Source: an uncultured Gammaproteobacteria bacterium
GTDB lineage: Bacteria; Patescibacteriota; Microgenomatia; Daviesbacterales; UBA10151
Direction: 5' to 3'
Assembly: GCA_964649615.1 (NCBI GenBank)
Contig: CAZYPW010000006.1
Location: 12,635 to 76,634, forward strand
DNA: 64,000 nucleotides
Positions 52,509 through 55,002 of this stretch are shown here, piece by piece (positions within the stretch are counted from its first letter, which is position 1; the number at the start of each line of letters is the position of its first letter). The notes beneath the pieces were generated by a model. That model saw only the letters and a program-made list of their open reading frames with translations, made no database searches and was not told the DNA's origin. A program made the translations under genes and the position numbers.

Positions 52509-54104
52509 ATGAATATGGATATTATTTCCAAGATTGAGAGGGATATTAAGGAGCTAAAATTTAAAGCGCAAAAACAAAATGTAGGTTATGTGAGTGAGAT
52601 TGGTGATGGGGTGGCAAAAATAGACGGGCTTTCTGATGTGCAATATTCTGAGCTTTTGGATTTTGGCTCCGGGGTTAGAGGACTGGCTCTTAATTTGGAA
52701 CAATACTCTGTTGGAGCTGTTATTTTTGGAGATTATACCAAAATTAAAGAAGGGGCTGAAGTTAAAACAACAGGCAAAATTTTGGAGGTGCCGGTTGGTG
52801 AAGCACTTGTTGGAAGAGTGGTTAACGGCTTAGGAGAACCAATTGATGGAAAAGGAGCTATTAAAGCTTCTGCCAAATATCCGGTTGAGAAAATTGCCAC
52901 GGGTGTAATTAGCAGGCAGTCTGTTAATACCCCGCTCCAGACAGGCATTAAAGCCATAGACAGCATGATTCCAATTGGCCGTGGGCAGAGGCAGTTAATT
53001 ATTGGGGATAGAAATACGGGTAAAACAACTATTGCGATTGATACGATTGTAAACCAAGGGAGAGTTAATAGTTCACAGTTAGTTAGTTCATCGCCAAAAG
53101 CAAATCGAACTAACGAATTAACCAATCACGATAAACAAGTTATATGTATCTATGTGGCTATTGGCCAGAAAACTTCTAAAATTGCTCAATTGGTGGCTAA
53201 GTTAGAAGAACACGATGCCATGAAACACACTATCATTGTGGCTGCTTCTGCATCTGACAGCGCTACTATGCAATATATTGCCCCATATGCAGGAGTAGCT
53301 ATGGGTGAGTATTTTATGGACTTGGGCAAAGATGCTTTGATTATTTATGATGATTTGAGCAAACATGCCTGGGCTTACAGACAGGTGTCTTTGCTTCTGC
53401 GAAGGCCATCTGGCCGTGAGGCTTATCCCGGGGATGTGTTTTATTTGCATTCCAGGTTGCTTGAGCGGGCAGCCAGATTAAACAAAGATTACGGTGGCGG
53501 ATCGCTGACAGCTTTGCCTATTATAGAAACTCAGGCCGGAGATGTGTCTGCTTATATTCCAACTAATGTTATTTCTATCACAGACGGGCAGATTTATCTG
53601 GAATCTGATTTATTTAACTCCGGATTCAGGCCTGCTTTAAACGTTGGAATCTCTGTATCCAGAGTTGGAGGAGCAGCGCAAACAAAAGCTATGAAGTCGG
53701 TTGCAGGACAATTAAGGTTAGATTTAGCCCAGTTTAGAGCCTTACAGGCTTTTGCCCAATTTTCCTCTGATTTGGATCCGGAAACCAGATCCAGGATTGA
53801 AAGAGGCAGAAGAATTCAGGAGATACTAAAACAACCTCCTTACTCCCCTGTTAGCTTAGAAGAGCAGGTTGTTTCTTTATGGGCAGTTATAAACGGGCAT
53901 CTGGACGAGATTCCGGTTGAAAATATCCGTGATTTTGAACAAAAGTATCTAGAATACCTTAAATTAAGAGAGAAAAAGCTGCTTTCTGAGATAGCTTCTA
54001 AAAAAGAGTTGGACGAGAAGATGGTAAAAGAGCTAGAAAAGGTTACTAAGAGTTTTGTGAGTACTTTCGCAAAATCAAATATCAAAAATAAAAATGAAAA
54101 ATGA
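52509..54104 (+). CDS. atpA: F0F1 ATP synthase subunit alpha
   Basis: [16 protein letters not shown]-loop and a [42 protein letters not shown] block. Contains a roughly 26-aa in-frame insertion at 53061-53138. Confidence 0.95.
53078..53123. repeat. Family-4 inverted repeat GTTAGTTAGTTCATC...CGAACTAAC
   Basis: Inside atpA. The insert encodes [17 protein letters not shown]. Confidence 0.75.
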
Positions 54105-54141
54105 CAGATTAAAATGTAAAATGTTTACTTAAATTAAAACT

Positions 54142-55002
54142 ATGGCTAATACTAGGGAACTAAGAAGAAGAATCAAGTCTGTTAAAAATACAGCCCAGAT
54201 AACCAAGGCTATGCAGATGGTGGCTGCTGCCAAGATGAGAAAAGCCCAAAATCAAGCCACCTCTGGCAGGCCTTATCTTGAGACATTAAGTGATGCGATC
54301 GCACACCTTTACGGGAAGATTGACATAAAAACCCACACTTTACTTTCAGGAAATGATTCAAAAACAGAAGCTATAATGGTTTTGTCTACAGACAAGGGAT
54401 TAGTTGGAGCTCTAAACACTAATATTATCAGGCAACTAGCTTCCCACATCGGAAGTGGGAACGTAGTAGTTTATTATACAGTTGGGAGAAAAGGAAGGAG
54501 TTTTGTGGCCAGAACTGGAGGAGACTTAAAAGCCGATTTTGAGAATTTAGATACTATCACTTTTAGGCAAGCTAAACAGTTATCTAAATTAATTATGGAT
54601 GCATTTAAAACAGGAGAAATTGGTGAGGCTTTTATGGTTTATCCCCACTTCCTGTCAACCTTAAGACAGGAAGCAAGAAGGGTGAAATTATTGCCTATAG
54701 ATGTAGGGTCGTTAGTTAGTTCATCTAATAACGAACTAACTGGCCCAGAATTTCTTTTTGAACCCGATGTTGATGTATTACTTGATTTTCTTTTAGTTCA
54801 CCATATTGAAGAGCAAATTTATCAGGCACTCCTTGAAACAAAAGCTTCGGAACACTCAAGCCGTATGATGGCTATGCAAAATGCCACAGATAATGCCCTG
54901 GAGTTGGTGGATGATCTAAAATTAACTTATAATCAAACCAGACAAAGTGCAATTACAAATGAACTGCTTGAGATTACAACCGCCCAAGCAGCAATGAATT
55001 AA
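54142..55002 (+). CDS. atpG: F0F1 ATP synthase subunit gamma
   Basis: N-terminal [36 protein letters not shown] and the C-terminal helix. In-frame insertions at 54441-54461 and 54711-54742. Confidence 0.9.
54441..54461. repeat. Family-1 palindrome TTCCCACATCGGAAGTGGGAA
   Basis: In atpG. Read as SHIGSGN. Confidence 0.9.
54711..54742. repeat. Family-4 inverted repeat GTTAGTTAGTTCATCTAATAACGAACTAAC
   Basis: Inside atpG. Encodes [11 protein letters not shown]. Confidence 0.75.

Follow-up and report, generated by a model that had tools for sequence, protein, structure and literature searches.

We found that two neighbouring genes of the F-type ATP synthase operon of a candidate-phylum bacterium, atpA and atpG, carry copies of the same short palindromic element within their coding sequences. 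The operon lies in a 64,000-nt stretch of contig CAZYPW010000006.1 (assembly GCA_964649615.1, positions 12,635 to 76,634; hereafter, the window), which has a G+C content of ~37% and belongs to a metagenome-assembled genome (MAG) of Candidatus Daviesbacteria, within the Patescibacteria or Candidate Phyla Radiation (CPR). We consider it probable (about 0.68) that the element is a dispersed palindromic repeat similar to the repetitive extragenic palindromes (REP) and the Rickettsia palindromic elements (RPE), and that copies within genes are retained because one of their frames contains no stop and the host loops are permissive. Elements of this kind are already known from Rickettsia and from REP-rich proteobacteria, and they are here extended to the CPR. 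The host genes were identified by database identity and by structure matches. The product of atpA (52509-54104, +; F1 alpha subunit, 531 aa) was 100% identical to protein P0001, annotated as 'F0F1 ATP synthase subunit alpha [Candidatus Daviesbacteria bacterium]', and matched solved alpha subunits with E about 1e-206. The product of atpG (54142-55002, +; F1 gamma subunit, 286 aa) was 100% identical to P0121 ('ATP synthase F1 subunit gamma'), and solved gamma chains also matched.

The exact 15-mer GTTAGTTAGTTCATC occurred at two sites in the window, 53078-53092 in atpA and 54711-54725 in atpG. Each copy was trailed by the inverted partner CGAACTAAC, 13 nt later in atpA and 6 nt later in atpG, and the hairpin pattern GTTAGTTC-N(1-30)-GAACTAAC had its only two window matches in these genes (0.00 expected from 100 shuffles). 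With ~0 expected and both copies in the same frame, the matching palindromes announced by an earlier, sequence-only reading of this DNA were thus confirmed. A census of perfect 8-bp stems with 3-20-nt loops over the whole window yielded two multi-copy families, the GTTAGTTC family and TTCCCAC/GTGGGAA. The former had been proposed as a second element family, and this holds, as it is distinct from TTCCCAC-N7-GTGGGAA (hereafter REP1) and is present outside the atp genes and outside this genome; we refer to it as family 2. The long form in atpA spans 53064-53131, as delimited by the copy alignment and the nhmmer match, and consists of the 5' arm GTTAATAGTTCACAGTTAGTTAGTTC, an A-rich loop, and the 3' arm GAACTAACGAATTAACCAA. 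Its arms at 53079-53089 and 53107-53117 are 11 nt long, 91% complementary, and 17 nt apart, with a perfect 8-bp core (53082-53089/53107-53114). The short form in the gamma loop of atpG, supported by pattern, fold, and nhmmer, spans 54706-54746 and encodes 12 residues; its core consists of GTTAGTTAGTTC at 54711-54722, a 10-nt loop at 54723-54732, and GAACTAAC at 54733-54740, and its stem pairs AGUUAGUUC with GAACUAACU and GGGUC with GGCCC. Folded as RNA, the atpG hairpin had a minimum free energy of -17.5 kcal/mol (z = -4.0) and the atpA hairpin one of -10.2 kcal/mol in the sense orientation (z = -2.5) and -15.8 kcal/mol in antisense; z ranged from -2.5 to -5.9 over all family-2 copies. A possible divergent relative at 36627-36672 forms a 16-bp hairpin (GAGTTCGTAGTTCGTAG-ATTTTTTA-CTATGAACTATGAACT; -24.4 kcal/mol and z -5.9 as RNA of the + strand) at the junction of the open reading frames (ORFs) 35965-36609 and 36602-38452. 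It has the architecture of family 2, that is, tandem AGTTC-containing units flanking an A/T loop. When up to two mismatches to GTTAGTTAGTTCATC were allowed, one further site appeared at 17895-17909(-), a solo arm TTAGTTAGTTCAT with 13 nt identical to the element and no inverted partner. It is not significant alone (shuffle expectation 0.10) and may be a relic or a chance match; it lies inside ORF 17553-17960 (+) and is read YELTK on the + strand.

In atpA, the element lies within 27 codons (G184-Q210; 53058-53138, +) that, in the ortholog alignment, replace the KD of the closest orthologs, in agreement with the roughly 26 aa first proposed. Of the 120 alpha homologs closest to the window protein, which are 74-83% identical to it, 93 read NQ-(K/R/H)D-V(I/V)CIYVAIGQK and had no insert. 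When the insert was masked, a neighbor-joining tree placed the window alpha among no-insert sequences (P0011, P0013, P0007, P0008, and others), and solved bacterial alpha subunits aligned with it in two blocks that left query residues 184-208 unmatched. The nearest available empty site, in the DNA of locus L017, reads AATCAAAAAGATGTG. The atpA insert is thus a real, recent, lineage-specific, and in-frame insertion. The insertion point is the turn that links the helix following the P-loop to the strand after it (NQ|KD|VICIY); in the mitochondrial alpha subunit (bovine sequence), the loop after the P-loop helix is ~10 residues longer. An AlphaFold2 (AF2) model of atpA built on a 36-sequence alignment was unusable for judging the insert (mean predicted local distance difference test, pLDDT, 54.7; nucleotide-binding domain <50). 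The same extra residues were not found in unrelated bacteria.

The situation in atpG is less clear-cut. The loop that holds the hairpin (LLPI...EFLFEP) ranged from ~8 to ~55 residues among Daviesbacteria homologs. With 15 residues, the window loop was only 4 residues longer than that of the closest ortholog, L019, and the hairpin adds about 4-7 residues. The whole protein is no longer than many orthologs, and its loop is about as long as those of solved bacterial gammas. Hence, the shorter hairpin reported for atpG is real, but the label 'insertion' is only partly justified there. The site is the loop that leads from the last beta-strand into the C-terminal helix; in an AF2 gamma model (pLDDT 70), residues 193-209 were coil and residues 197-201 had pLDDT <50. 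The alignment with chloroplast gamma was interrupted at query residue 189, the site of the regulatory insertion of chloroplast and cyanobacterial gamma subunits. As far as homology indicates, both atp sites would be surface loops. A copy of the REP1 family (TTCCCACATCGGAAGTGGGAA) also lies inside atpG, at 54441-54461, where it is read ASHIGSGN, and therefore atpG carries two different palindromes. The REP1 site is occupied in L017 and L018 as well, and diverged hairpins are found there in L019 and L020.

The coding copies also resemble each other in their translation, and this resemblance can be traced to the DNA. The copies in atpA and atpG are translated in one common frame, giving LVSSS. 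Every family-2 copy has exactly one stop-free frame per strand, and for this reason the coding copies share an LVSS...(T)NELT-like reading. The second halves are not equivalent: GAACTAAC, the arm that forms the pairs, gives (R)TN in atpA, where ELT is supplied by the degenerate unit that follows, GAATTAAC, whereas in atpG this arm itself gives ELT. The two 3' arms are in different frames because the loops differ by 7 nt (17 vs 10). Since NELT comes from non-equivalent nucleotides, the likeness is at the DNA level and is not that of a conserved peptide, and convergence of LVSSS/NELT at the protein level was rejected. An intein, an intron, a diversity-generating retroelement, and ribosomal bypass were likewise dropped, as the inserts are short, stop-free, in frame, and translated within the ORF.

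Relatives of the element were found at other sites and in other genomes. One genome per GTDB species was scanned with the pattern GTTAGTTAGTTC-N(1-30)-GAACTAAC, and 2 of the 12 matches were clear relatives, one in a Daviesbacteria MAG (L004) and one in a Patescibacteria MAG (L007). Both lie in frame in trmD (SQLVSSS..RTNELTN), with the readings ...SQLVSSSKTKTQKRTNELTN... and ...SSLVSSSSKTKRTNELTKNELT...; the L004 copy is more diverged and occupies the same trmD site. The TrmD identity was confirmed, and the protein has 242 aa for a profile of 221 positions (~20 aa longer). A stricter pattern applied to JGI metagenomes recovered the same trmD locus as L007 twice (L013 and L016). The JGI metagenomes also contained an intergenic copy (L014/L015) in a further CPR atp operon, where ~95 nt of element separate the stop codon of atpF from the start codon of atpH. 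In addition, the gamma homolog P0125 (L020, another Daviesbacteria contig) has a 63-nt version at the same atpG site, and ATTCGTTCATGGTTAGTTCG.AAAA is common to this copy and the L014 spacer copy. Compared with the trmD copy of L007/L013/L016, the atpA copy was identical at 44 of 48 nt (~92%), including the A-rich loop, whereas only arm segments of 15 and 9 nt are common to the atpG and atpA copies. An nhmmer profile built from the atpA and trmD copies, which did not include the window atpG copy, matched L014/L015 (E = 4e-6), L020 (E = 1e-4), the window atpG (E = 5e-3), and 36626-36672 of the window (E = 0.02). The long form recurs with a conserved loop in independent assemblies (NCBI, JGI, and Logan). 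The copies in atpA, atpG, and trmD all lie within genes; an intergenic position is seen only for L014/L015 and perhaps for 36627-36672. CACA, GGTC, CATC, and CATG flank the copies on the 5' side, and no conservation was seen on the 3' side. A search of the concatenated element peptides against a collection of 5.8 billion proteins returned nothing at E <= 10 and thus no further host genes, and an Rfam search of the window and three loci gave zero matches.

The other matches of these scans were set apart from family 2. Six of the 12 genome matches (Heimdallarchaeota, Bacteroidetes, Bacteroidales, Gammaproteobacteria, Mesobacillus, and Clostridiales) were isolated hairpins, and three matches in viral contigs had unrelated GC contexts; all of these were judged to be chance. 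The remaining four, from Anaerolineae, represent a separate multi-copy intergenic repeat with conserved flanks and the common stem GTTAGTTAGTTCGTC...GACGAACTAAC (L001 7205-7250, L008 204-249, and L010 2960-3005 in one MAG; L011 5062-5106 in another MAG). No transposase was seen near this repeat, and it had no Rfam match. Its stem, GTTAGTTAGTTCGTCC...GGACGAACTAAC, is nearly the same as that of the Daviesbacteria element, and the two are either related or convergent.

The two atp sites turned out to accept many different palindromes. Unrelated inserts of 2-28 aa were found exactly at the KD position in 27 of the 120 alpha homologs, with the carriers scattered over the tree, and palindrome-derived peptides were recognisable in the gamma loop of most orthologs. 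All inserts for which DNA was retrieved (L018, L024, L025, L026, and L027) were hairpins. The atpA insert of L018 consists of tandem GTCGTCA units and their complement, that of L024 is CGTCATTCTGAAC...GTTCGGGATGAC (-37 kcal/mol), that of L027 is made of ATATCGG units, and the L025 insert is ACACCCCGGGGGTG...CACCCCCGGGGTG. The L024 palindrome occurs once in atpA (9087-9140) and twice in atpG (10298-10350 and 10757-10810) and nowhere else in 20 kb; it is read RHSELVSES..IPKQVRDD, and the second half of its third copy is read in a shifted frame, SRNEFGMT. It is a widespread palindrome of a different family from that of the window. L027 (atpA) and L026 (atpG), which come from different samples, have another family in common, while different families occupy atpA and atpG in L018, L025, and several contig-matched protein pairs. 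Therefore, both atp loops are recurrent insertion hot spots for many palindrome families across Daviesbacteria, and occupancy of both sites by the same family is recurrent but not the rule. We also observed that almost all long atpA inserts (P0001, P0009, P0017, P0055, P0080, P0093, P0098, P0107, and P0113) start NQ-G-(R/Q/K/T)-x-(S/N). They belong to unrelated families, are scattered on the tree, and replace KD; the short GC-rich inserts (SPRSAGGAG type) come after KD.

The element consists of arms in which GTTAGTT(C)/(G)AACTAAC-type units are repeated in tandem, with an A-rich loop between them, 36 to ~95 nt in total, and related copies occur at unrelated coding and intergenic sites in several Daviesbacteria and other Patescibacteria genomes. 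A copy within a gene would survive on two conditions: that the element is entered in its stop-free frame, giving a hydrophilic Ser/Thr/Asn-rich peptide (LVSSS...TNELT), and that the loop tolerates extra residues. The atpA copy is a recent insertion of the long form, and the atpG copy is short, probably older or eroded, and lies in a rapidly turning-over loop. The encoded peptide would be functionally neutral. As for the means of spread, it is possible, though doubtful, that single-stranded hairpin DNA is moved by a Y1/HUH (RAYT-like; RAYT, REP-associated tyrosine transposase) enzyme like the one whose gene lies 1 kb upstream of the operon.

Several observations speak against a dispersed repeat of this type. 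Spread by a Y1/HUH enzyme fails its direct tests, since no RAYT flanks the element and no GTAG/CGTC tag accompanies it. No transposase is linked to family 2, the only Y1_Tnp gene of the window being flanked by REP1 and not by GTTAGTTC hairpins. No conserved GTAG/CGTC tag was found at the family-2 ends, and GTAG is present only at the atpG copy, 4 nt upstream. The borders of the atpA insert show no clean direct repeat or target-site duplication when compared with the empty site in L017 and L014 (AATCAA|AAAGAT|GTN). Independent public copies are few, at three distinct non-window sites, and the 64 kb hold two clear copies and one divergent copy. Both clear ones lie in one operon, 1.6 kb apart, and with uniform sites this clustering has a probability of roughly (5.8/64)^2, or about 0.008. 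The window atpG shares CTAATAACGAA with its hairpin-free ortholog L019, so part of the atpG copy may be native sequence. Finally, the abundant REP1 is absent from both family-2 loops, which is unexpected if these loops are simple sinks of any active element.

The clustering within one operon leads to a different explanation, in which no mobile element is involved. Template switching or ectopic gene conversion at a stalled fork would have carried one hairpin, probably the older one in atpG, over the 1.6 kb to atpA, and the copies in trmD and the spacer would have arisen likewise or share simple-sequence arms. This fits the location of both clear window copies, the confinement of the L024 palindrome to atpA and atpG, and the third family common to the L027 atpA and the L026 atpG, and arms of tandem short units could grow by slippage. 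We nevertheless consider it unlikely. The atpA copy resembles the foreign trmD copy over its whole length, loop included, and agrees with the atpG copy only in the two arm segments; the loop lengths differ, so that the 3' arms are read in different frames; at 36627-36672, 16 kb from the operon, there is a divergent copy; and atpA and atpG of L018 and L025 hold different families. The sequence-only reading had called the two insertions independent. The closer similarity of the atpA copy to the trmD copy does argue against simple copying from the present atpG, but independence cannot be demonstrated, given the chance that remains for a local origin. A related and rather unlikely idea is that the alpha (NQ|KD|V) and gamma (LLPI...EFLFEP) loops are coupled, hairpin-directed hot spots into which palindromic cassettes are written, or between which they are exchanged, time and again, so that one family tends to fill both. 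The same family is found in atpA and atpG of the window (GTTAGTTC family), in L024 (RHSELVSES/PKQVRDD, three copies), and probably in L026/L027 (ATATCGG). If true, such coupling would imply either a targeted mechanism (a Y1/HUH enzyme acting on pre-existing hairpins, or local hopping) or a selected role of matched hairpins in the atp transcript. On this view, the G-R/Q-x-S/N start that inserts share in phylogenetically scattered atpA genes would be a scar of the process, and the coupling would give a handle on target choice by hairpin repeats.

Selection on the transcript or on the proteins was also considered. The palindromes might be functional RNA hairpins in the polycistronic atp mRNA, serving as processing or stability sites, as a translation pause, or in long-range pairing of copies that tunes the alpha:gamma ratio, in which case any sequence would do if the two sites match. 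The hairpins are indeed stable on the sense strand, and G-U pairs strengthen the one at 36627-36672 on that strand. Family 2 also recurs in atp operons (window atpA and atpG, L020 atpG, and the L014 atpF-atpH spacer), and matching families are seen in the window, L024, and probably L026/L027. However, the 93 close atpA orthologs without an insert, the non-matching families at the two sites in several genomes, the presence of the same element in trmD, the weaker atpA hairpin in sense than in antisense, and the lack of any Rfam family match make such a function improbable; moreover, ribosomes unwind hairpins within ORFs. It is still less probable that the loops are adaptive, as regulatory or interacting extensions of alpha and gamma comparable to the redox loop of chloroplast gamma or the alpha/gamma extensions of mycobacteria, with the palindrome incidental. 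The gamma site falls where chloroplast/cyanobacterial gamma has its regulatory insertion, and both peptides are hydrophilic and belong to two subunits of one enzyme. Against this, the closest relatives lack the atpA insert, the identity is at the nucleotide level (15/15 nt, synonymous positions included), NELT is built from non-equivalent nucleotides, and elements elsewhere are read with a frame shift in the second half (L024: IPKQVRDD -> SRNEFGMT). From F1 topology, the alpha loop would also be expected at the N-terminal margin of the nucleotide-binding sheet, a long way from the foot of gamma. A chance resemblance between AT-rich sequences of low complexity, or an artefact of assembly, could be invoked because the arms look like simple sequence, (GTTA)n, and because unrelated genomes match the pattern, with 6 of the 12 genome matches and the 3 viral ones looking random. 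The probability of this is close to nil: 100 shuffles of the window produced no hairpin match at all, both copies leave the long ORFs of essential genes uninterrupted, and the long form recurs with its loop in independent assemblies. The shuffles and the copy alignment have thus effectively refuted it already.

The dispersed repeat that we favour has counterparts among known systems. RPE, the 'protein-coding palindromes' reportedly described by Ogata et al. 2000/2002 and by Claverie & Ogata 2003 (references cited in PMC3733652), are dispersed palindromic repeats of a small genome, found intergenically and in frame in unrelated, often essential genes. They are tolerated in loops, adding about 10-30 hydrophilic residues, and no transposase has been demonstrated for them. 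Family 2 likewise lies in frame in unrelated genes (atpA, atpG, and trmD), with the closest atpA orthologs free of it and TrmD exceeding its profile by ~20 aa. On the other hand, it occurs in another phylum and is likened to RPE by behaviour and not by sequence, its arms consist of tandem 4-8-nt units, and its copy number looks low in the window. RPE are roughly 100-150 nt long, and family 2 is much shorter (36 to ~95 nt). RPE-4/6 of Rickettsia have been equated with CGTC-tagged REPs, and intragenic REPs encoding 20-30 aa, found in several bacteria, are thought to be neutral as they are located in loops (PMC3733652). The biology of RAYTs and of REPINs has been described (PMC2817692 and PMC3116915). 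Like REPs and REPINs, family 2 forms short imperfect hairpin palindromes (core hairpins of 26-33 nt, stems of 8-12 bp), and several families per genome and intragenic copies are known from those systems too (PMC2817692, PMC3116915, and PMC3733652). The window also has a Y1_Tnp gene flanked by hairpins, but these are of REP1, often with an adjoining CGTAG. In contrast, family 2 lacks a conserved GTAG/CGTC tag, does not flank the Y1 gene, and has 2-3 copies in 64 kb; its copies are mainly intragenic, whereas REPs are predominantly extragenic, and the Y1 protein of the window scores below the NCBIfam cut-off for RAYTs (38 vs 80 bits). Bacterial miniature inverted-repeat transposable elements are likewise small and non-autonomous, with inverted-repeat ends, and sometimes lie in frame within genes (PMC10969869). 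The atpA insert differs from them in having no evident target-site duplication. No parent insertion sequence with matching ends was seen in the window or in the retrieved loci, which cover a fraction of each genome. The loop insertions of F1 subunits (chloroplast/cyanobacterial gamma and mitochondrial alpha) show that the same two positions accept extra residues in solved enzymes. These insertions differ in being conserved across clades, that of gamma being functional, and they are not palindromic repeats common to other genes. Full-text literature searches returned nothing on such elements in CPR/Patescibacteria.

REP1 is the dominant hairpin family of the window, with 15 copies against 0 expected. 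The copies, of 21 nt each, start at 9611, 16806, 18148, 18384, 21506, 24537, 25017, 45464, 48873, 49353, 49567, 54441, 57981, 60733, and 63419. Eleven of them lie inside ORFs of at least 100 aa and are mostly read (A/R)SH(I/M)(G/S)SGN or FPHRMWEG. Two classes of loop, TTCCGAT-like and TTGACAT-like, were seen, each in both orientations, and the stem is adjoined by CGTAG/CTACG in several copies. The Y1 (HUH) transposase gene (48885-49592, +; RAYT-like, 235 aa), about 1 kb upstream of atpB, matched Pfam PF01797 Y1_Tnp with 39 bits (cut-off 23) and NCBIfam REP_Tyr_transpos with 38 bits (below the cut-off of 80), and its translation contains the motifs NHFHLL (HUH) and YIHRN (Tyr). REP1 copies are arranged around it in a REPtron-like layout, at 48873 just before the start, at 49353 inside the gene (read FPLKMWEG), and at 49567 at the stop. 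In the loci that carry family-2 copies (4-14 kb available each), tblastn found no Y1 gene. In the sister genome L018, two Y1-type genes (7240-7911 and 14542-15111) flank the atp operon. The GC-rich 50-nt ACCCGCTTCGCCCGCGACTTGCGTCGACGCAGGTGCGAAGCGAGGCGAGT represents a third type of palindrome read in frame, with a single window copy at 7552-7601, within a P-type ATPase-like ORF (6516-8888, 790 aa), where it is read DPLRPRLASTQVRSEAS. Given the intragenic REP1 copies and this palindrome, the genome tolerates intragenic hairpin repeats widely, and with the Y1 gene it encodes an enzyme from the class by which REPs are mobilised.

Besides atpA and atpG, the operon comprises atpB (50549-51286), atpE (51336-51539), atpF (51619-52113), atpH (52110-52505), and atpD (55005-56372), all on the + strand. 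The atpD of L018 (12595-14031) has ~25 extra aa near the N-terminus (SAIPRLRSGQEGKVQSQKDSSLSTQHSA) with no counterpart in the window atpD, and therefore a third ATP synthase subunit can also carry such inserts. Several CPR operons have small ORFs of 80-98 aa, in part GC-rich, inserted between their atp genes (L014 5734-5976, 7574-7834, and 8749-9003; L025 12679-12945; L027 2641-2937); those of L014 lie between atpH and atpA or overlap the atpA-atpG and atpG-atpD junctions. The alpha subunit of L020 (35-1579), a Logan contig, has an unusually divergent N-terminal half with a different junction (NQKQDGYRTPVCIYVSIGQK) and a typical C-terminal half, so this contig could be recombinant or chimeric.

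CPR genomes are very compact, and repeats have little intergenic landing space in them. The footprints described here lie in the essential and highly conserved F1 alpha and gamma subunits, and two loops of the ATP synthase serve repeatedly as landing sites throughout an entire candidate phylum. Such inserts inflate the apparent divergence of proteins and create spurious 'conserved' peptides (LVSSS, SHIGSGN, RHSELVSES, and others), and they can lead to errors when CPR proteins are aligned, placed in phylogenies, or modelled by structure prediction.

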